In this document: piece by piece, positions 6,861 through 16,784 of the stretch
Layout of the letters: every line of letters starts with the position of its first letter
How positions within the stretch are numbered: the first letter of the stretch is position 1
DNA from: Minisyncoccia bacterium
Lineage (GTDB): Bacteria > Patescibacteriota > Minisyncoccia > Phycocordibacterales > CAJBRS01
DNA length: 64,000 bases
Assembly (NCBI GenBank): GCA_038215155.1
Contig: JBBQRF010000001.1
Coordinates: 142,205-206,204, forward strand
Reading direction: 5' to 3'
The notes under the pieces: model-generated
The model's input: only the letters and a program-made list of their open reading frames with translations
Told to the model about the DNA's origin: nothing
Databases searched by the model: none
Made by a program: the position numbers and the translations under genes

Positions 6861-7839
6861 TACTAAAGGAGGAGGGAGTAACTAGTAAATAGAGGGATGC
6901 GCCAAAGAGAATAAGGTGGGGCCATACTGCCTCACCAAATAAGAATAGAGACAAAGTAAGATAGAAGAGGCTAATTGTGACGACTAAGCGGGTTTGAAAG
7001 CCGAAGATGATACATAAGCCAATGAGAGCTTCCACTATCCCCGCCCCGAGGACAATTAGCAAGGGATCGTGCGGAAAAAGAAAATGAAAACGAGGGAGAT
7101 CATAGCCATTAACTACCGCCAGAGTGATAGCGGGATGAAGAAACTTAACATAAACGGCTGCATAGAGGAGGGCCAGACCGTAACTAATTCTAATAATTGG
7201 TTGCTCCCACTCTAGTTTAGTCCAAAGCCCTCTTCTCTTAAAAAAGAGGTAGTCTAGAGAATAGATTCCGGAGCCAAAAAAGATTAAAGCAAGAAATTCT
7301 CCGACGTAGCTTAAATAATTAAATAAATAAGCGCCGAAGGCAATAGCCGAAAGCTTTAAGACTATTATAGAGATCAGCCCTGCTGCTTCAGAAAATAATC
7401 CTAAAGCGATTAGAGCGCTAAGAAGGTAGAGGACGATTCTTATATAAGGAATGAAGGTAAGCTGATTTAAAGAAAGTTCCGGTCCGAGAAAGTTTTGAGA
7501 ATAGGCAGAATAAAAAAGGGCGGCCGCAACAGCCAGTCGAATGAAGATGGCGCCAAAATTGCCCAAGCGCTCAATTTTGGCGCTCAACTTATTCCCCACT
7601 CCTGATTGTTGAAATATAAAATTAGCAATTACTAAAACAAATATTCCAATACCAATTAATACCACTAACTGAATATTGGCCGGATCTAAAAGGGCGCGAA
7701 AAGGGTGGACGGTCGAATCCCTAAAACTTTGAGCAATTTCTCCCTCTGATAAAACATAAACTTCGTGTGCACTAGAAGATATCGGGAGACTAAAAAGTAA
7801 GAGGGCTAAGAAGTAAAATAGATTTTTCCAGTTACTCAT
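6802..7839 (-). CDS. polytopic membrane protein
   Basis: About 9 predicted TM helices; stop abuts the start of the giant fibre gene. Confidence 0.45.
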   Translation of the reverse strand: MSNWKNLFYFLALLLFSLPISSSAHEVYVLSEGEIAQSFRDSTVHPFRALLDPANIQLVVLIGIGIFVLVIANFIFQQSGVGNKLSAKIERLGNFGAIFIRLAVAAALFYSAYSQNFLGPELSLNQLTFIPYIRIVLYLLSALIALGLFSEAAGLISIIVLKLSAIAFGAYLFNYLSYVGEFLALIFFGSGIYSLDYLFFKRRGLWTKLEWEQPIIRISYGLALLYAAVYVKFLHPAITLAVVNGYDLPRFHFLFPHDPLLIVLGAGIVEALIGLCIIFGFQTRLVVTISLFYLTLSLFLFGEAVWPHLILFGASLYLLVTPSSFSIDNLASRLWYNMRQEGIIN

Positions 7840-10800
7840 TAAGGTGTAGTGCTACTATCTGCAGGAGGAGGCGCGTCGGTGGCAGAAGGTGCGCTGACTG
7901 AAGAGGAATTTCCGGTTTCAGTTGGCGGAGTAGGAGTAGGAGTGGTATCTGGAGATGGATCAGCCGGTAGCTCAGAAGTTGGAGGTAAAACAGACGTTGA
8001 CGTTGCAGCAGGGGGCGTATTTATAATGACAGGAGGCGGAGGCGTTGATATGACGTTGGTAGTACTTGTAGCGTTTTCATCCAGACACTCTCCTGGATCC
8101 GTCTTCATTGCGCCATTTTGCATAGTGATGCAGTAGTACTTTCCGGTAATCTTATCTTTAATAGTAATACCCTCTTCCACTTTCACGTGCTTCACCGTCA
8201 ACCTCTCCACGAAGACATCTTTCAGATATGCAATGCCATCTACTACTTCGGCGCCAAAACTTTGAAGGGCGCCGAGAATCTCTCCCCCAATAGAGGTGTG
8301 GTTAGTAGAAAGATTAGTTAATGATTCAATAGAAGCCACTCTAATCTCAAGCTTTCCTAGTGCTTCAGTAGTCGAAGCACTGTGGGAGTCTAGTTTCTTA
8401 GAAAGAGCTTGAATACCAATAAGTGCTACGCCTGCTGGATCAATGGAGGAGATACTGGTGTCAGATCCTCCTAGGTGGAACTTTTCATAGAAATCTTGGG
8501 CTACGGGACCAATGTGAGTAATTCCAGAGTTTTCTGATTTGTAATTCCACTGTTGGATATTAAGGTTATTGATCTTGCCCAAGACTTCTTCCCCATTTAA
8601 ATCTGTGAAGTTCTCCTTGAGATTGCGGTCCGAGGCGTTGGTCCAGGTACCTCCGACTGATAGGCAGGCGCCGTTTGATGCCAAGACACTCTTGTCTCCA
8701 TTAATAGAGAGCCATCCGTTGCAGTATCCTATTTGAGAAGAAGAGGAGGTGGCGTTTGTGAGACAGGCGCCGAAGGCGGAGGCAAGACAGGCAGAGGCGG
8801 TGTTGAAGAAGCCGAATGCATTGGATGAGGTGCCGGAAGCACCATTAGTTAAACCTATTGCAGAGCTTTTGTATCCACTAGAACTATTACCTACACCGAA
8901 TGCGACCACACAAACTCCGGAAGAAGTGTTGAGGTACCCCGCAATCGAAGCTCCTAACCCACTAGCAGTATTAGCAATACCGAAGCTTGAACTTTTATAG
9001 CCGCTCGAGGTGTTAGTCATGCCAAAAGCAAAAGCACAATTATTAGAGACGGTGTTTTGATATCCAAAACCTCCCGACAAATTGCAACTGACATTATTGA
9101 GCCAACCGAAGGCATTCGAATTGGATCCTGAAGAAGTATTTTGAATACCGAAAGCCACACTAGCATTTCCACTTGAAATGTTAGATTTTCCATAAGCCAC
9201 AGCAAAGGTGGTGCTAGCAATGTTTGAGTATCCACCGACAGAACTGCCAGGACCGGAGGCGGTGTTGGAATAACCAAAACCTGAGCTGTAATCTCCTGAG
9301 GCGGTGTTGCCGTAGCCGAAGGCGGAAGATAAATTGCCCGAGGCAATATTTCTATAACCGAAAGCTGAAGCAAAACGGTTGCCACTAGCCGTGTTGCAAA
9401 GACCAAGGGCGGAGTTGTAACAACTACTAGCCGTGTTGCAAACGCCGAAGGCGGAGGAAAGGTTGCCGGAGACGGTGTTGAAGCGGCCGACGGCTGATGA
9501 GAAACCTCCAGTAGCACAATTTACAAATCCTACGGCAACGCTCCCATTCCCAGCAGTAAACCCGCTATTGTTCCCCAACCCAACCACCACGCTACCATTA
9601 AAAGCGGCATTGGCAGAATTATTTATACCGATAGCAATGTTGTTGTATCCTCCGATAGCGGCGTTGGCATTATTTCCTAAACCAAAAGCCATACTACAAA
9701 TGGCATTAGTTTGATTACACGCCCCGAATGCAGCTCCCAAACAACTACTAACGGTATTGCGGTAACCCGAGGCGGAGGAGCAGCTTCCCGAGACAGTATT
9801 GTATGCTCCGGAGGCAGAACTGCGATTATTTGAAGCAAGGTTACAAAAGCCAAATGCACTTGCGGCAGATCCGCTTGCTGTATTGCAAAAACCAAAACCC
9901 GAAGCCCCTCCACCAGAAGCCGTGTTTAAATAACCTGCAACGGAACTACTATCTCCAATTGCTCTATTACAAAACCCCACCGCCGATGCCCTGCAACCAG
10001 AAGCTGAATTATAAACTCCGCTTGCTGTGGAGTAATCTTGAGTAGCGCAATTTTGATAGCCAAATGTATTTGAAACGTACGAGGTAGAGCAATTACGCGT
10101 ACCTAGGGCTAATGATCCATAACCTGTTGCAAAACTACACCGACCAAATATGGCACTGTAATTACCTGAAGAAGTATTAGCTTCTCCGATCGCTATAGAA
10201 CTACAGGCGCTTGCAATGTTAGAGAAGCCAATAGCGTAGCTTCTATATCCACTTGCAGTATTGCAGGCTCCAACTGCAGAGGAGTACGATAGCAGTCCGC
10301 CATATCCTCCTATTCCCCCTGCTTTGTTGCAATAACCAAGAGCCGTTGATCCCGTACTTGTTGCTTGATTTCTAAATCCCACTGCACTAGCATTTACTCC
10401 AGTAGCTGAGTTCTGGAATCCCACCTCTATCGGATTCAAGTTATTAACATTGGCTGCAGTTGTGGATGAGAAATTAGAACAGAAGGTGTTAAAGTTCTGA
10501 TTAATATTATTGATCTGATTCTGTATATTCTGCACCTCGGCTTTACTGACTCCATCCATGTGACCGATGACTGATCCACCAGCGTAGGTAATGTAGTTGT
10601 TGGTGACTGGAATTGTACTTGGTTGATTGTTTGCGGTATAGATCTCTGCTTCAAGCTTGTCGTTGAGAGCTTTTAGTTTTTGATTGAGTAATGTCTCGGT
10701 GACTCCATTAACAATGGTGGTGTTGCGGATGACTGTCACAGGTCCCGAGCTTGGCGAGGGACCTGTTGGAGCAGAAGGTCCTCCACCTTGAGAGGTGTAA

Positions 10801-11258
10801 TTGTTAATGATGGTGGTAGTAGAGTAGGTAGAACGTGGCAGTGGTGGGGGTGGAGTAGTAGGTTGGATGACTTTAATGATTGGAGAAGGTGGAGTGGGTT
10901 TTTTGAATAGATCAAAGAAGGAAGAGATGATGTCTCCAATAGAACTAATGACGCTTCCAGTAAGGGATAGTGGTTTAATGAAAAGAGCGTTCGAGTTTAA
11001 AGCAAGCTGGCCATTTCGGAAGTGCGAAATGGCCAGGAATTTCTGGATATTCCCGGGTTTTAGATCAAGAGAGTTGTTGGCTATTCTCTTTAAAGGGGAG
11101 GGGGTGGTTTTTTCGCGTGGTGAAAGAGAGTTTTCGCTTCCCAGAGTGCGAAAAAGGAGGAAAATAGCTAGAGAAAGTAAGGTTAATTTAGAAAGAAGAC
11201 GTTTCATTGATCCCTCGTTAATGATGGGATTATTGTAGCATATTCTAGAGGGGTGCAA
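7839..11258 (-). CDS. giant surface fibre protein (1139 aa): ~50 Hep_Hag-like G(Y/F)xN(T/I)ASGxxSSAxG repeats plus C-terminal intramolecular chaperone (peptidase S74 / tail-fibre) domain and Pro/Thr-rich tail
   Basis: N-terminal signal. Motif WTNASDRNLKENF...GPVAQDF typical of endosialidase/tail-fibre chaperone domains. Coiled coil, a two-Cys domain (YYCITMQNGAMKTDPGEC), then a PT-rich tail. Confidence 0.7.
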   Translation of the reverse strand: MHPSRICYNNPIINEGSMKRLLSKLTLLSLAIFLLFRTLGSENSLSPREKTTPSPLKRIANNSLDLKPGNIQKFLAISHFRNGQLALNSNALFIKPLSLTGSVISSIGDIISSFFDLFKKPTPPSPIIKVIQPTTPPPPLPRSTYSTTTIINNYTSQGGGPSAPTGPSPSSGPVTVIRNTTIVNGVTETLLNQKLKALNDKLEAEIYTANNQPSTIPVTNNYITYAGGSVIGHMDGVSKAEVQNIQNQINNINQNFNTFCSNFSSTTAANVNNLNPIEVGFQNSATGVNASAVGFRNQATSTGSTALGYCNKAGGIGGYGGLLSYSSAVGACNTASGYRSYAIGFSNIASACSSIAIGEANTSSGNYSAIFGRCSFATGYGSLALGTRNCSTSYVSNTFGYQNCATQDYSTASGVYNSASGCRASAVGFCNRAIGDSSSVAGYLNTASGGGASGFGFCNTASGSAASAFGFCNLASNNRSSASGAYNTVSGSCSSASGYRNTVSSCLGAAFGACNQTNAICSMAFGLGNNANAAIGGYNNIAIGINNSANAAFNGSVVVGLGNNSGFTAGNGSVAVGFVNCATGGFSSAVGRFNTVSGNLSSAFGVCNTASSCYNSALGLCNTASGNRFASAFGYRNIASGNLSSAFGYGNTASGDYSSGFGYSNTASGPGSSVGGYSNIASTTFAVAYGKSNISSGNASVAFGIQNTSSGSNSNAFGWLNNVSCNLSGGFGYQNTVSNNCAFAFGMTNTSSGYKSSSFGIANTASGLGASIAGYLNTSSGVCVVAFGVGNSSSGYKSSAIGLTNGASGTSSNAFGFFNTASACLASAFGACLTNATSSSSQIGYCNGWLSINGDKSVLASNGACLSVGGTWTNASDRNLKENFTDLNGEEVLGKINNLNIQQWNYKSENSGITHIGPVAQDFYEKFHLGGSDTSISSIDPAGVALIGIQALSKKLDSHSASTTEALGKLEIRVASIESLTNLSTNHTSIGGEILGALQSFGAEVVDGIAYLKDVFVERLTVKHVKVEEGITIKDKITGKYYCITMQNGAMKTDPGECLDENATSTTNVISTPPPPVIINTPPAATSTSVLPPTSELPADPSPDTTPTPTPPTETGNSSSVSAPSATDAPPPADSSTTP

Positions 11259-11276: not shown

Positions 11277-11930
11277 CTATCCTCCAAAGATGTCCATCTC
11301 GCTTAGAGGCTCAGCCTCTAAGCTCTTCCTTCGTTGAATATCCTTTATAGAATCCGAAGCAAATGATCTATAATCTTCCAGTGAGACAAACTGATCTAAA
11401 ATAACATTTTTTCCAATACAAATATCATTCGCCTCTATCTCCGACCTTTTATACTCTTCCCAGCTCGACACACTCAACTTAGAGGCTGAGCCTCTAAGGG
11501 TGTTATTTAAATTAATATAAGCGCTCAGATGAAGAAGATAGTGGTTAGAATCTATATGTTTGTTTTTATATCTTCCTTCAAAGAGACATCCGGTACGTTG
11601 ATATTTATCATTGAAATATCTGGTATAGCCGGTACTTACCCGATGCATGAATTTATTAACTCCTGAATCACTTATGGCCTTAACTAGAAAATGGTAGTGA
11701 TTGGAGTTAAGACAATATGATACAAATTCAACCAACTTAGAGGCTGAGCCTCTAAGTCCAGATCTGAAAGAGTTCACATGCAAACCTCCACCTGCGTATT
11801 CGGTATTAAAAATTATCATACTTTTAAAAAAACGCTTGAGATCGTTTGGGGCCATAAAAATATCCCGTTTATCAACACCTCGGTTATATATATGATAATA
11901 TTCCCCTTCTATAATTTTTATTTTCCTCAT
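11277..11930 (-). CDS. IS200/IS605-family Y1 (HUH) transposase, REP-associated tyrosine transposase (RAYT)-like
   Basis: YHIYNRGVDKRDIF, HUH motif NHYHFLV, catalytic Tyr region TGYTRYFNDKYQRTGCLFEGRYK, HYLLHLSAYINLN. The ORF contains three in-frame copies of a 21-nt palindrome, each translated as LRGSASK or SLEAEPLSE. Confidence 0.75.
   Translation of the reverse strand: MRKIKIIEGEYYHIYNRGVDKRDIFMAPNDLKRFFKSMIIFNTEYAGGGLHVNSFRSGLRGSASKLVEFVSYCLNSNHYHFLVKAISDSGVNKFMHRVSTGYTRYFNDKYQRTGCLFEGRYKNKHIDSNHYLLHLSAYINLNNTLRGSASKLSVSSWEEYKRSEIEANDICIGKNVILDQFVSLEDYRSFASDSIKDIQRRKSLEAEPLSEMDIFGG
11302..11322. repeat. 21-nt perfect palindrome cttagaggc(t/g)(c/a)gcctctaag, copy A (inside the 3' end of the transposase ORF)
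   Basis: Direct reading of the sequence. Confidence 0.9.
11478..11498. repeat. 21-nt palindrome copy B (inside the transposase ORF)
   Basis: Direct reading. Confidence 0.9.
11736..11756. repeat. 21-nt palindrome copy C (inside the transposase ORF)
   Basis: Direct reading. Confidence 0.9.
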
Positions 11931-11943
11931 ACTTAAGGGCCGA

Positions 11944-11964
11944 CTTAGAAGTTCAGCCTCTAAG
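11944..11964. repeat. degenerate palindrome copy D (cttagaagttcagcctctaag), 14 nt upstream of the transposase start
   Basis: Direct reading; 2 mismatches in the left arm. Confidence 0.7.
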
Positions 11965-12020
11965 TAAGATACAGAAACGTAATAAAGGAAAAATAAAAAT
12001 TAGATTAAATAGCTTCTTTA

Positions 12021-12065
12021 CTCAGTGCAGTACTTAGAGGCTCAGCCTCTAAGTACTGCACTGAG
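12021..12065. repeat. palindrome copy E embedded in a 45-nt perfect hairpin (ctcagtgcagta-[21-nt palindrome]-tactgcactgag)
   Basis: Direct reading. Confidence 0.9.
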
Positions 12066-12082
12066 TACCGTGTTAAGTAGAG

Positions 12083-12874
12083 CTATTTCCAAAAGTTGAG
12101 GTTCTCCAAGGGAGCAGCGAAGGCACCTAATACTTTTGGCCATTGAGGATCAATTGGTTCTACTTTGCTGCGAATGTCGTGAAGCCCTTTGAAACCATGG
12201 ACAGAGTCATCTTCCCAGGTCACTTGTTTTACATCCTCAAAATTATGTTTGAATGGCTTCTCATCTAAAAACTTGTAAATTTCTTCCATAGTCTTCTGCG
12301 GTTCTCGCGTCAGTTGTTCAAATTCTATAAAAAACATTCGATCTCGATATCCTCTATTAATAGCGTCGCGAATGCGAGAGTAAGCGAGACCTACTGGCTG
12401 ATCAACCTGCATCCAAACATCCACGCGCCCTTCCACTGTCTGAAATTTAAAATAATTGGCGGATTCTTGATTGATTTGTGTGGTACTGGAATTTGCTCGC
12501 CAAAGTTTTTCAAAGCTCGCAAGAATATCGCGGATGTCGCGCACTGGTACTAAAACTTTGGCTGGTCTTCCAATAACTGCTTCTGCCATTTCAATTAAGG
12601 AAAGCCAGCCCCGACATTTATCAAAGATTACTGGTTTTTCAATATCTTCGTAATAACTTTCTAGAATGCCGCGCATCACTCGCAGTAGCGCGGCGTCATT
12701 CGGCGCCGCTTGAAACTCCACTAGATTGTGCCATTGATTGCGCACACCAAACATTACATCCATGATGCCGCTCGTACCAGTAGTATGAAAGCGTGGATTT
12801 TGGGCCAGAATATTAGCAAGCAATGTTGACCCAGAACGAGGGAGGCCTGCAATAAAATGATAGGTCTTTTTCAT
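12083..12874 (-). CDS. sulfotransferase family protein
   Basis: N-terminal PAPS-binding P-loop-like GLPRSGSTLL (5'-PSB motif), size ~260 aa. Confidence 0.65.
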   Translation of the reverse strand: MKKTYHFIAGLPRSGSTLLANILAQNPRFHTTGTSGIMDVMFGVRNQWHNLVEFQAAPNDAALLRVMRGILESYYEDIEKPVIFDKCRGWLSLIEMAEAVIGRPAKVLVPVRDIRDILASFEKLWRANSSTTQINQESANYFKFQTVEGRVDVWMQVDQPVGLAYSRIRDAINRGYRDRMFFIEFEQLTREPQKTMEEIYKFLDEKPFKHNFEDVKQVTWEDDSVHGFKGLHDIRSKVEPIDPQWPKVLGAFAAPLENLNFWK

Positions 12875-12980: not shown

Positions 12981-15900
12981 TTAATTGGCAATTGAAACGG
13001 GGGCGTCTGGGGCGCTGATTGGTGCAGAGATAGTAGGAGCGGAGACGATGGGTGCTGCGATGGTTGGAACTGGAGTGACGACAGCTTCGACTGGGGCGGG
13101 ATTAGCAGGAGAGTTGCTTGGAGATGGAGCGACGCTCGCTGGTGCAACGTCTGGAGTAGGATCCGTTGGTGGAGTAACAGGAGGATGATCTATAGCACCA
13201 ATACCATCAACTGGTGAAGAGGTTGGGGCCGTTGCGACTGGAGGAGCGGATAAAGTTATAGTGTTGTTATTTGAATCGGTAGTAATAACTGAGTTAGTAG
13301 AAGTTGCGGTGGAATCAGGACACTCCCCTGCGTCACTTTTCATTTGACCATTCATAAAGTAGACACAAAGTGGTGCTCCAGTTCCCCGATCGTAGATAGT
13401 GAAGCCAGTTTTAGTAACGTCCTTGCCTTTAATGGTGAGATTCTGAGTAGTAAAGTGTTGAACAAAAACATTTTTCAGATATGAAATGCTGTCTACTATT
13501 TCAGATCCAAAGGATGTCAAAGTGCTGAAAAGTTCGGAGCCTAGACCCGCGCCTCCGGCGCCGCCCCCCATCCCCTCTTTCAATCCCTCTAAACTCTTCA
13601 CTCGAATATCAAGTGAAGCAAAAGCAGCGGTAGTAGAAGCATTTAAAACATCCTGTTTATTCATATAGTCAGTAGTGGATGCAGTGCTTGAAGCCAGGTT
13701 TTGATAAAGAGCCTTAACCGATGACATTAACAATCCATTAACGGAAACCTGATCAATTACATTTCCCCACATAAACTGTGGATCAACTTCGTCGGCAATA
13801 TATCCTAATCGTTTCTTAGCTAGCAGACTATCAGAACCATATCCTTCAACATCGTTCTTGTATCGGAAATAATGAAGAGGGGCGTCCAGGATTTTCTTCA
13901 AGCCATCATTATAGTCATCGTAATTTTCAATATCCTGCTTCGTCTCTCGTACAGAAGTTTGAGCTCCCACCACTACCCCAACGGTGTCCGTAGTCGTTGC
14001 CTGAAGAGGGTTAACTCTGACATTACCAGCGGAGTCTACCCACATAAATGTAGAGGTTCCGACTTTTCCAACAAATTGAAGAGCACCCGGACTAGCATTT
14101 GTCGCATTTGAGTTTCGCCCAAGGGTTAAGAATTGTCCTCCACTACCATTCCCTCGATCATAAGATGGTAAGACTAAGGAAGCGGTTCCTGAAGCGGCAG
14201 TGCTAAATTGCCCCGAATTTCCAATATCTAATAAGCGGGTAGGGGTAGAGGTGCCGATTCCAACCAAACCTCCGGCAGTGATATGTAAAACTGATGTTCC
14301 TGTGGATGAGGCAATGTCTAATATACCGTTTGCGCCCGCCAGACCCACCACCGAAAATCGGGAAGAACCAGTGCTTGTACCGATATTAATGACTCCATTC
14401 AAAGTATCTGCCACAAAAAGATGCGTGTTACCAGCCGACCCTTGAATTTGTAAAGCCGTCACAGAATCTGAGGTACTCTGAAAAGAAACAGGAGCACTTA
14501 CCACTCCTCTAAGTTGTACTCCGCCAATTTGGTATGACGTAAGAATTGCACCAGTTTGCAGTTGCACAGCATCAAGAAAGAAAGTTCGGCCTAAGGCATC
14601 TGTTTGTTCAATAAAAATATATGGGGTTCCGGAAATAGTACCGGAAGTAAATGTACAGGAAAATCTCTTCCATCCTCCCGTAACTACCGTAGTGTTGTTT
14701 AAAGTACAGGTTTGTTCATTTACTCCATCACTTGCTATCCCTGCTCTAATAGTAAAATTTGAGCTTGAGGCTTGGGCATAGAAAGATAAAGTGTATTGAG
14801 TAGCTGAAGACAAAGTATTTGTAAAAGCTGTGGTCTTAGCACCACTACTTGCTACAGCTGCATCAACAACTTGGAGCGAACTGATTCCGTGATACTTATT
14901 GGTAGTAACGCCAGTGATGGATCCAGATCCTAAGACTGGCGCCCATCCGTTTGTATTTGATTCAAACCCCGGATTATTCACTAAGTTAATAGTGCTTGTA
15001 TCTACCGTAAAGATAGGAGCACCCTGACTATTTTGGACCTGAAAAGCATTTGTGGTGTTTGTGGCAGTAAGAATACTTGCAGTTCCTACGACACTTAAAT
15101 TTTGCGAAGGAGTTGATGTTCCAATTCCAACATTTCCATTCTGTAGAACGGTTAAGAGAGAGATTCCTGTGGAGGAAGCAACGTTAAATGGATTTACTCC
15201 TGAGGATCCCTGAACGTTGAAGGTGAATGAAGAAGATGTGGCGTTAACTCCAGCTACAGTGGCGTTATCTAAAAATAATCCGGATGACAAAGTTGAAGCA
15301 CTGGTCCAGCGTGCTAGGAATCCATTTGTGCCTCCGGAAAGTGATCCTCCACCAATACCCAGAGTGGAGGTCGCTACCCACTGAGTGCCCGCCCCGTTTG
15401 TTTGCAAAACCATGCCATTAGTGCCGGCACTAGAATTTCTATCAAAAAATGTACCTGCAAGTGATAGCGCTCCACCAACCGAAAGGTTATTGGTGAAGGT
15501 GGAAGTGCCGGCACCGATTACAGTCGTCAGTCCGGTAAATAGGCCATTTCCGACAACGGAGAGAGCGGCCGTAGGAGACGATGTACCAATACCCACATTC
15601 GCCGTATTATTATTAAAAATATTGTTTCCGCTCTGAGTCCACACACTATTTAAAGTTGCTCCACTAAATGAAAGGCCGGTGCCCGGGGTGATCGCTGCTT
15701 GTTTACCATTAAAGGTACTCCAATCAGTTGCTGTTAGTAATCCCCTATTTGAGGCAGAGGCACTTGGCATATTAAAAGTGTGGATTGTCCCCGAAGAAAC
15801 AATGGAAAAATCTGTACCAGTAGTAGTGGTCGCAAAGGTTTGTGAAGATCCGCTAAGACCGTTAAGTGAAGTTATTCCCGATCCCCCACTAATTCCCAGA

Positions 15901-16784
15901 GTAGAGGTGGCAACCCAACGAGAAGATGTTCCTGTTGTTTGAAGCACCATACCCTGAGTTCCAATTGAGGAACTTCCATCGAAGAACCCTCCTGATAAAG
16001 AAAGTGCGCCACCAATGGATAGATTATTGTTGAAAGAAGATGTGCCAGCGCCGGAGACGGTGGTGATGCCGGTAAATAGTCCATTGCCAGCGACGGAAAA
16101 TTTTGTGCTGGGGGTGGTGGAACCAATCCCGACATTGCCGTTACTTAAAACACTGAAGACATTGGTGGCTCCACTGAAAAGATCGAAAACATTTCCCGTA
16201 CTATTTTGAGTGATGGAAAGTGCTGTTTGAGAAGATGAAGCGTTAATCGTTCCAGTTTGATCGGCTCGAACGTATTGCGTAGATGAAGCACCTCCAAGAT
16301 TATAAGATTCAATGGAGGCCGGTGTGGCGCCAAGGATTTTTCGTGGAGTCATTTCTGCATCGGATTCGATGGTGACACCAAGGTAAAGTGATTGGTTAAA
16401 ATTAACACCAGTAAATGGTGTGGTGGATCCGAGCATGATACTAAAGAGTCCACTTGTTACTTGAACCTTATTAGCTGCCGTATCACTCTCAGTCCAAATG
16501 GCCGCTCCCCCAGTGGAAACTGTGTAGAGTTTAAAAGTCATGTTATATAACCCGTCGGCCACTGCCACGTTAGAAGCGTTAGTTAATTTCCCTTGATAAT
16601 TGATCTGCTGGTTAATAGCAGCGTTTGCAATATTAAAATTAGCGCCAAAAATTGTAAAAAAAATACTCCCAGTAATAAGGAGTGTAAGTATGAGGGATCT
16701 TACGAGTGACTTATTAAGTTGTTTGTTAAATTTGCTTAACTGGACCATTTCAGAATCCCTCTGAAATCTATCCCCCTTGCTCAT
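12981..16784 (-). CDS. giant surface fibre protein (1267 aa) with internal ~190-aa repeats, CBM4/9-like domain and C-terminal intramolecular chaperone (S74-like) domain plus PT-rich tail
   Basis: Signal/TM LVRSLILTLLITGSIFFTIFGANFNIANA; repeated TTVSGAGTSSFNNNLSIGGALSLSGGFFD modules; NPGFE...GW carbohydrate-binding-like module; C-terminus paralogous to 7839..11258. The better start is probably the Met at 16748, which has GAGGGA 7 nt upstream. Confidence 0.7.
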   Translation of the reverse strand: MSKGDRFQRDSEMVQLSKFNKQLNKSLVRSLILTLLITGSIFFTIFGANFNIANAAINQQINYQGKLTNASNVAVADGLYNMTFKLYTVSTGGAAIWTESDTAANKVQVTSGLFSIMLGSTTPFTGVNFNQSLYLGVTIESDAEMTPRKILGATPASIESYNLGGASSTQYVRADQTGTINASSSQTALSITQNSTGNVFDLFSGATNVFSVLSNGNVGIGSTTPSTKFSVAGNGLFTGITTVSGAGTSSFNNNLSIGGALSLSGGFFDGSSSIGTQGMVLQTTGTSSRWVATSTLGISGGSGITSLNGLSGSSQTFATTTTGTDFSIVSSGTIHTFNMPSASASNRGLLTATDWSTFNGKQAAITPGTGLSFSGATLNSVWTQSGNNIFNNNTANVGIGTSSPTAALSVVGNGLFTGLTTVIGAGTSTFTNNLSVGGALSLAGTFFDRNSSAGTNGMVLQTNGAGTQWVATSTLGIGGGSLSGGTNGFLARWTSASTLSSGLFLDNATVAGVNATSSSFTFNVQGSSGVNPFNVASSTGISLLTVLQNGNVGIGTSTPSQNLSVVGTASILTATNTTNAFQVQNSQGAPIFTVDTSTINLVNNPGFESNTNGWAPVLGSGSITGVTTNKYHGISSLQVVDAAVASSGAKTTAFTNTLSSATQYTLSFYAQASSSNFTIRAGIASDGVNEQTCTLNNTTVVTGGWKRFSCTFTSGTISGTPYIFIEQTDALGRTFFLDAVQLQTGAILTSYQIGGVQLRGVVSAPVSFQSTSDSVTALQIQGSAGNTHLFVADTLNGVINIGTSTGSSRFSVVGLAGANGILDIASSTGTSVLHITAGGLVGIGTSTPTRLLDIGNSGQFSTAASGTASLVLPSYDRGNGSGGQFLTLGRNSNATNASPGALQFVGKVGTSTFMWVDSAGNVRVNPLQATTTDTVGVVVGAQTSVRETKQDIENYDDYNDGLKKILDAPLHYFRYKNDVEGYGSDSLLAKKRLGYIADEVDPQFMWGNVIDQVSVNGLLMSSVKALYQNLASSTASTTDYMNKQDVLNASTTAAFASLDIRVKSLEGLKEGMGGGAGGAGLGSELFSTLTSFGSEIVDSISYLKNVFVQHFTTQNLTIKGKDVTKTGFTIYDRGTGAPLCVYFMNGQMKSDAGECPDSTATSTNSVITTDSNNNTITLSAPPVATAPTSSPVDGIGAIDHPPVTPPTDPTPDVAPASVAPSPSNSPANPAPVEAVVTPVPTIAAPIVSAPTISAPISAPDAPVSIAN

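Follow-up and report, generated by a model that had tools for sequence, protein, structure and literature searches.

A Y1 HUH transposase-family gene of Patescibacteria with palindromic hairpins at its promoter, within its reading frame and at its stop codon

The subject of this study is a gene for a Y1 HUH protein in a 64,000-base stretch of DNA from a Minisyncoccia bacterium (GenBank assembly GCA_038215155.1, contig JBBQRF010000001.1, positions 142,205 to 206,204), referred to below as the window, and the short palindromes that surround this gene and run through its coding sequence. We consider it rather probable that the locus represents a Patescibacteria-wide RAYT-like system, in which a chromosomal gene for a Y1 HUH single-stranded DNA (ssDNA) nuclease/transferase goes together with a cognate perfect-palindrome hairpin embedded in the gene itself. 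We observed an anatomy of gene and hairpins that is conserved in the family, concerted evolution of the hairpin copies, overlap of one copy with the predicted promoter in homologs, and in-frame copies in housekeeping genes of related genomes. By analogy with RAYT systems, the hairpin would be cleaved by the enzyme.

The repeated unit is CTTAGAGGCT(C/G)AGCCTCTAAG, 21 nt long, with 10-bp arms and one central base; in search form the same palindrome is CTTAGAGGC-NNN-GCCTCTAAG, with a 3-nt centre. In the search for copies up to three mismatches were allowed. Copies without any mismatch were found at 11302-11322, 11478-11498, 11736-11756 and 12033-12053, and a copy with two mismatches at 11944-11964, all five within 766 bp. 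These are the four perfect palindromes and the degenerate one that a preliminary description of the locus had listed; the pattern as typed there was one base short and had no match, since a 3-nt centre is needed, and the hairpin around 12033, given as 45 nt, has an actual length of 49 nt (12019-12067). At up to three mismatches there are no further copies in the window (0.03 expected by chance; five copies were reached in no shuffle). Exact 9-nt half-arms occur nine times in the window, every one inside the five copies, while half-arms with one mismatch are no more frequent outside the copies than chance predicts (15 against 13.9). Folded as ssDNA, the four perfect copies have energies from -8 to -26.6 kcal/mol (z from -4.1 to -12.1 relative to shuffled controls); the fold of the degenerate copy is weak (-4.5 kcal/mol, z -1.8). 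The features of the locus are as follows, with the hairpins listed without strand.

11277..11930, minus strand: predicted Y1 HUH (IS200/RAYT-superfamily) ssDNA nuclease/transferase open reading frame (ORF), 217 amino acids, identified by PF01797, homologs and fold.
11691..11699, minus strand: HUH motif H78-Y79-H80 (HYH), from the translation and its conservation in the homolog alignment.
11517..11519, minus strand: predicted catalytic tyrosine Y138 of the motif Y-I-N-L-N, in helix 129-140, from translation, alignment and model.
11736..11756: copy C, site S1, read in frame as LRGSASK (codons 59-65), within a surface loop that immediately precedes the HUH-bearing strands.
11478..11498: copy B, site S2, in frame, codons 145-151 (LRGSASK), in a loop directly after the catalytic-tyrosine helix.
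11302..11322: copy A, site S3, translated through as SLEAEPLS, codons 203-210.
11944..11964: copy E, site U, degenerate (two mismatches), ending 13 nt ahead of the ATG and with no -10 box after it.
12019..12067: copy D, a 49-nt perfect hairpin with 24-bp arms and a 1-nt centre, around the core 12033-12053.

All three internal copies of the ORF at 11277..11930(-) are translated without a stop. The preliminary description was right that they leave the frame unbroken, LRGSASK being encoded twice and SLEAEPLS at codons 203-210, and that the gene is bracketed by hairpins as well as carrying them in frame. Copy D, with a fold of -26.6 kcal/mol (z -12), is situated between the stop codon of a sulfotransferase gene (12083) and the Y1 gene, as an extended copy 88 nt upstream of the Y1 start codon; its outer arms are locus-specific sequence. 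Such outward lengthening, by 5-14 bp of locus-specific sequence and giving stems of up to 24 bp, is frequent in extragenic palindromes (L087 5627-5677, L089, L084, L061 and the window hairpin 12019-12067 are examples). This gives the impression that an inverted copy of the flanking DNA had been made, by snap-back or template switching.

The assignment of the protein to the Y1 HUH transposases, also made in the preliminary description, held. The Pfam model PF01797 (Y1_Tnp) matches residues 65-140 with 33.8 bits against a curated cut-off of 23 (E=4e-8), the HYH motif and the YINLN tyrosine are in place, and in 117 homologs H78, Y138 and N142 are invariant, with H80 present in at least 90%. The ORF of the window is intact and keeps every family-invariant residue. 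An AlphaFold2 model made from the homolog alignment (predicted local distance difference test, pLDDT, 86.9; predicted template modelling score, pTM, 0.84) has the HUH motif on strands 67-74 and 78-85 and Y138 on helix 129-140, with S1 and S2 as coil segments flanking the predicted catalytic core. The top Foldseek match to this model was 4ER8, the E. coli TnpA-REP/RAYT protein with its repetitive extragenic palindromic (REP) hairpin (E 3.5e-6, target TM score 0.60), followed by the TnpA proteins of IS608 and ISDra2 (2A6M, 2VJV, 2XO6). A search of PDB sequences with the family profile yielded nothing beyond chance-level matches to RNase A (E of 0.002 for the best, from 0.005 to about 1 for the others), which were disregarded. 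No helix-turn-helix or other duplex-binding domain was detected in the protein with Pfam and NCBIfam profiles.

The homolog search returned 2312 proteins of about 205-250 amino acids, the best non-self match being 57% identical. Those with named sources come from Patescibacteria (Parcubacteria/Paceibacterota groups) and are mostly annotated as 'transposase'; of the 120 homologs listed, nearly all have a precomputed PF01797 match. Judged by these searches, the Y1 protein is a member of a large family specific to Patescibacteria.

The positions of the hairpins are a property of this family. We scanned the DNA of 80 homologs from metagenomes, together with genes from a pattern scan of reference genomes, for perfect hairpins. 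At least two perfect hairpins with the same core were present in 80 of 89 homologous Patescibacteria genes, and they occupy four fixed sites: U, upstream of the start codon (71/83), S1 (48/89) and S2 (44/89) within the gene, and S3 at its end (65/87). With up to two mismatches per arm allowed, the occupancies were 72/73, 45/79, 45/79 and 65/78, respectively. The centre of the S1 hairpin falls on window residue 62 (median; interquartile range 60-62; 44 homologs) and that of the S2 hairpin on residue 148 (median; range 148-151; 41 homologs), coinciding with the window's own copies. The U hairpin ends a median of 14.5 nt ahead of the start codon. The S3 hairpin starts a median of 2 nt past the stop codon in homologs, while the ORF of the window reads through it. 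The window thus has the standard layout of the family with three peculiarities, a degenerate U, an ORF that continues through S3 and an extra extended copy upstream; its gene is a slightly atypical family member. The idea of a compact unit with recognition hairpins inside its own gene, offered in the preliminary description, comes close to this layout, and recognition itself would be expected by analogy.

The protein alignment contains no indel at the three in-ORF hairpin sites, so that the heptapeptides, considered earlier as possible insertions, are not insertions relative to close homologs. Similar peptides occupy the same alignment columns in homologs (e.g. QLGGEASKL and QLGGFASKL; in homolog P0096, QLGALGAKL, KLGALGPKL and a C-terminal LGALGAKS), and the homolog peptides at the hairpin sites back-translate to palindromes with compensatory changes. 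These data bear on the proposal that the transposase gene is being destroyed by its own REP-like insertions and is a pseudogene in the making. The extreme density of hairpins in and around the ORF, and the loss of the usual promoter and the usual stop position in the window copy, could be read in this way. We find the proposal hardly credible, with the ORF intact and all invariant residues kept, the sites conserved without indels in homologs 42-57% identical (tblastn or BLASTP) and the copies falling in loops of a confident model.

Three further candidates were dropped: a CRISPR-like array, since the spacing is irregular; a DNA uptake sequence, since the copies are far too few; and a restriction site or assembly artefact, since the pattern occurs in about 90 independent assemblies with compensatory variation.

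Hairpin and Y1 gene are matched. The foot of the stem, ACTT(A/G)G...C(T/C)AAGT, is common to the family, while the inner 3-4 bp and the loop vary between genes; we counted 45 different inner arms, one per gene (an example from another family member is ACTTGGACAC...). As the inner stem and loop are identical within a gene and different between genes, the copies evolve in concert. Sharing of an arm depends on how close the proteins are: it was seen in 12 of 13 gene pairs with protein identity of at least 80%, in 3 of 9 pairs at 70-80% and in at most 8% of pairs below 60%. In the pair L063 and L113 (77.7% identical) the same change, AAGC versus GGTG, is present at all three copies, and in the pair L078 and L098 (94.7% identical) the same central base differs in both copies. 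Unbiased loci totalling 532 kb contain 14 family-type hairpins that lie outside Y1 genes, and 10 of them share a 7-nt arm core with the hairpin of the local gene; for two of the ten (L099 and L101) only the 7-nt core matches, with a difference further in. The matching and the fold together suggest that the Y1 protein recognises the hairpin.

The distant paralogs L048.1 and L116.1, 25-33% identical and with the classical YIHxNP motif, have their own unrelated hairpins at U, S1 and S3. Both loci encode two diverged Y1 paralogs, 31-33% identical and a few kb apart (L048, 277-912 plus a second gene on the opposite strand; L116, 2680-3306 and 6515-7183), which look like orthogonal enzyme-hairpin pairs in one genome. 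A relative of L048.1 is also encoded by L073 (tblastn), and L089, L111 and L112 contain a similar second ORF (blastp clustering). An outlier among the hairpins is that of L102, CTACAGTAGC-CTT-GCTACTGTAG at 963-997 and 1191-1225, where GTAG is present and the ACTTGG foot is replaced.

We also observed copies in related genomes. Exact arms were found in 38 stretches of reference genomes, nearly all from Patescibacteria and with a genome-specific centre. Related Patescibacteria genomes contain about 3-7 perfect copies of the 21-mer each, mostly inside long ORFs and many of them in frame. The in-frame hosts, all seen in related genomes outside the window, include genes with Pfam assignments to UvrD, UvrC, UvrB, ArgRS, class II aminoacyl-tRNA synthetase, GMP synthase, MnmA, YchF, PurH and a PMT-family glycosyltransferase, as well as PheT. 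In PheT the peptide (N/H)LEA(R/K)PLS fills an insertion of 7-20 amino acids that is present in the closest clade only and missing from more distant orthologs. The preliminary description had also raised the possibility of a dispersed REP-like family. The window argues against it, with no other copy and no indels, and the few copies per related genome, mostly intragenic, favour it weakly. The density of cognate copies in the flanks of homologs is only 0.2 per 10 kb, and for this reason the lack of another copy in the window is unremarkable.

In one clade of Patescibacteria, insertions concentrate in the PheT loop after GRIYGY(D/E)KI (L019 28-1977(-), P0121-P0161), with the short peptides LEARPLS, LEAKPLS, PLGAVQGLASGS and EDGPLKASQGPSLMT in different genomes. 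Some of these may represent other or decayed hairpin types.

Site U, the most conserved copy, is built into the predicted core promoter of the gene in most homologs, contributing the -35 box and the spacer ahead of an extended -10 element. A TAnnnT motif within 12 nt after the U hairpin was found in 57 of 76 cases (background 14%), and 43 U hairpins have the TG of an extended -10. The hexamer TTGGNN is located 17 nt upstream of the -10 box, inside the left arm of the hairpin. The -10 box most commonly stands 6 nt from the ATG, and this spacing implies that the messenger RNA (mRNA) is leaderless. It is reasonable to infer from this arrangement that the Y1 gene may be autoregulated through its U copy.

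The same observations suit an explanation without mobility, in which the palindromes are double-stranded operators for a dimeric regulator, either the Y1 protein or another factor, and four of them regulate the gene. Besides the overlap of U with the -35 box and spacer in most homologs, the perfect symmetry of the palindromes, their variable centre and the own sequence of each gene and paralog would fit. We regard this explanation as unlikely. An operator makes little sense in frame in unrelated housekeeping genes, where the same sequence stands, and in PheT the hairpin is an insertion; the nested half-arm remnants (see below) and the locus-specific outward extension of arms also speak against it. 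Furthermore, the closest structural relatives of the protein bind single-stranded hairpins, and the protein has no detected helix-turn-helix or other duplex-binding domain.

Could the hairpins act in mRNA, as elements of stability, processing or translation attenuation repeated by chance? The transcribed ORF contains three of the copies, their stems are stable and REPs elsewhere are known as RNA elements (PMC3733652). In imperfect copies the sense strand has 20 G.T and 24 A.C mismatches, and the absence of a G.T excess argues against a structure in the sense RNA. The ratio at the in-gene sites is 6 to 18, and G.U-compatible mismatches are not in excess there either. Site U, where conservation is highest, is positioned ahead of the predicted leaderless start and so would fall outside the mRNA; the orientation of the loop flips freely, being reversed between copies of one gene; and Rfam gave only sub-threshold matches to microRNA-like hairpins and no known RNA family. 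We consider a role in mRNA very unlikely. The in-gene A.C lean on the sense strand corresponds to G.T pairs on the template strand; either coding constraints or a use of that strand could lie behind it.

Traces of turnover were seen next to some hairpins. An extra half-arm stands beside 9-11 of 213 perfect hairpins, at extragenic sites only. Where it lies 5' of the hairpin it is without exception a left arm, and where it lies 3' of it a right arm. Half-arms of this kind would remain if a new copy had become nested in an older one.

With regard to mobility of the whole gene, the preliminary description had proposed an IS200-like unit. In its full form this would be an autonomous insertion sequence whose ends are the upstream and stop-codon hairpins, the unit of ~0.75 kb moving by single-strand peel-and-paste and the internal copies being incidental. 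The enzyme is a Y1 HUH protein, hairpins flank the gene in nearly all homologs, the unit resembles IS200 in size, and the GC content of the gene (0.34) is below that of its neighbours (0.41-0.48). However, there is a single Y1 copy in the 64-kb window, with no sign of multicopy transposition of the IS200/IS605 type, and no identical multi-copy elements were seen in the 80 loci. Loci with different hairpin variants have neighbouring genes in common, which points to vertical inheritance, the synteny being partial across diverged loci. No relatives of the Y1 gene were found on viral contigs. Both ends are formed by one and the same perfect palindrome, in contrast to left-end and right-end hairpins that are imperfect and differ from each other, and the solo hairpins in housekeeping genes are left unexplained. 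The mobile unit keeps its enzyme and flanking hairpins as arguments but is weakened by the single copy, the partial synteny and the absence from viral contigs, and we judge it quite improbable.

The low GC content, 0.34 at 11500-11999 of the window against 0.41-0.48 in the flanking genes, may mean that the gene is foreign, or else that such a value is usual in this family. The Y1 gene is flanked by two very large repeat-rich proteins, encoded at 7839-11258(-) and 12981-16784(-) (1139 and 1267 amino acids), which are probably surface proteins: one has a Peptidase_S74 chaperone domain with YadA-head-like repeats and the other a CBM_4_9 domain. Large surface-type neighbours of the Y1 gene are present at four other loci as well (L079, L090, L097 and L114).

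The RAYT-like explanation, which we prefer, would work as follows. The hairpin is most likely a DNA stem-loop recognised by the encoded enzyme, as REP hairpins are recognised by TnpA-REP. Two copies bracket the gene in the manner of a REPtron, one at the promoter (U) and one at the stop codon (S3), with up to two further in-frame copies (S1 and S2) in predicted surface loops on either side of the HUH-Tyr core. The copies of one gene, and most of the few copies of the same type nearby, stay identical while the protein diverges; we would attribute this homogeneity to a continuing copy-and-replace turnover of hairpins by the enzyme. In most homologs the predicted promoter, with its implied leaderless start, takes its -35 box and spacer from the U copy, and binding of the enzyme at U, or extrusion of the hairpin, would switch off transcription of its own gene. 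A wider proposal we put forward only tentatively: that Patescibacteria contain an undescribed class of frame-compatible palindromic elements of 21-25 nt, propagated and homogenised by the RAYT-like Y1 enzyme, whose own gene would be their main home, with substrates conserved in the coding sequence. If this is true, the system has a built-in feedback, through binding or cleavage of its own gene, together with a concerted rewriting of all copies.

Several observations weigh against this explanation. The window gene has no -10 box after U, and a consensus scan of 11931-12100 found no minus-strand promoter; therefore autoregulation cannot be argued from the window locus alone. A perfect palindrome at a promoter also looks like an ordinary double-stranded operator. 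Two features on which TnpA-REP of E. coli depends, the 5' GTAG tag and an imperfect stem with a bulge (PMC3479197), are missing from the Y1-family hairpins, GTAG being found in the aligned hairpin contexts only in the outlier L102. The NCBIfam RAYT equivalog model NF047646 (REP_Tyr_transpos) scores the protein at 18.6 bits, below its cut-off of 80. The proposed link between protein and hairpin rests on co-location, co-variation and the analogy with 4ER8, and gene conversion could bring about concerted change with no part played by the enzyme. Copies are very few (0.2 per 10 kb in the flanks of homologs, and no further one in the window), so active dispersal must be rare. Finally, the A.C lean at S1-S3 (18 versus 6 G.T in 79 homologs, small numbers) is unexplained.

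How repeats spread, how enzyme and repeat come to match and what restrains the enzyme are unsettled matters in REP/RAYT systems. The family described here offers dozens of natural matched enzyme-hairpin variants, including orthogonal pairs in one genome, and this makes specificity, turnover and feedback directly testable by means of short oligonucleotides and one protein of 217 amino acids. In-frame hairpin insertions in essential genes of the Candidate Phyla Radiation (CPR), such as those for aminoacyl-tRNA synthetases and Uvr proteins, matter for protein annotation and alignment. As tags for DNA-protein conjugation, HUH enzymes whose hairpin specificity can be programmed are of practical interest.

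In the literature covered by our searches there was no relevant work that connects Patescibacteria or CPR to RAYT, REP, IS200 or palindromes, and repeats inside the gene or its promoter are not mentioned by Quentin 2018 (PMC6006769) or Corneloup 2021. With REP/RAYT systems (E. coli yafM, 4ER8; PMC6006769, PMC3479197) the locus has in common a single-copy chromosomal Y1 HUH gene flanked by a short palindromic repeat, the presence of the repeat elsewhere in the genome and a repeat type specific to the gene lineage. The flanking that defines a REPtron is present, with D and E upstream and A at the 3' end in the window, and U (72/73) and S3 (65/78) in the family. The hairpins differ in having perfect stems, an ACTT(A/G)G foot and variable flanks, with no 5' GTAG tag and no bulge. 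REPs number tens to thousands and are mainly extragenic, whereas here there are few per genome and the dispersed copies are mostly intragenic and in frame. Also unlike REP/RAYT, up to two copies stand at conserved codons of the enzyme's own ORF and one forms part of the predicted promoter.

IS200/IS605 elements (IS608 and ISDra2 TnpA) are similar in the Y1 HUH fold, in the hairpins on both sides of a small tnpA and in a unit of about 0.7 kb. The present locus differs from them in showing no sign of multicopy transposition, in its conserved synteny and in the lack of a tnpB partner. Both its ends are the same perfect palindrome, in place of the distinct imperfect subterminal hairpins with guide and cleavage tetranucleotides, and its hairpins also occur alone in host genes. 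Intragenic REPs and Rickettsia palindromic elements (PMC3733652) provide a parallel for in-frame palindromic insertions in functional genes, notably uvr, that add short peptides; the units described here are shorter (21-25 nt, about seven amino acids) and go together with a resident Y1 gene in whose own ORF this unit is also present. Among the intragenic REPs of Di Nocera et al. 2013 (PMC3733652) many are in repair genes, and none was reported inside a transposase gene.

Because the locus departs from classical RAYT/REP in the GTAG tag, the bulged stem, the high extragenic copy number and the NCBIfam model, and from IS200/IS605 in the respects just given, we regard it as a variant of the REP/RAYT kind and a member of neither. 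REPIN-RAYT systems (Bertels and Rainey; PMC3116915, PMC8049555) differ from it in that their repeats are REP doublets rather than single hairpins; the population here is tiny, with a large share in and around the enzyme gene. The likeness lies in their mode of evolution: in both, the Y1 gene is inherited vertically, and it and the repeat population endure and change jointly within a lineage.

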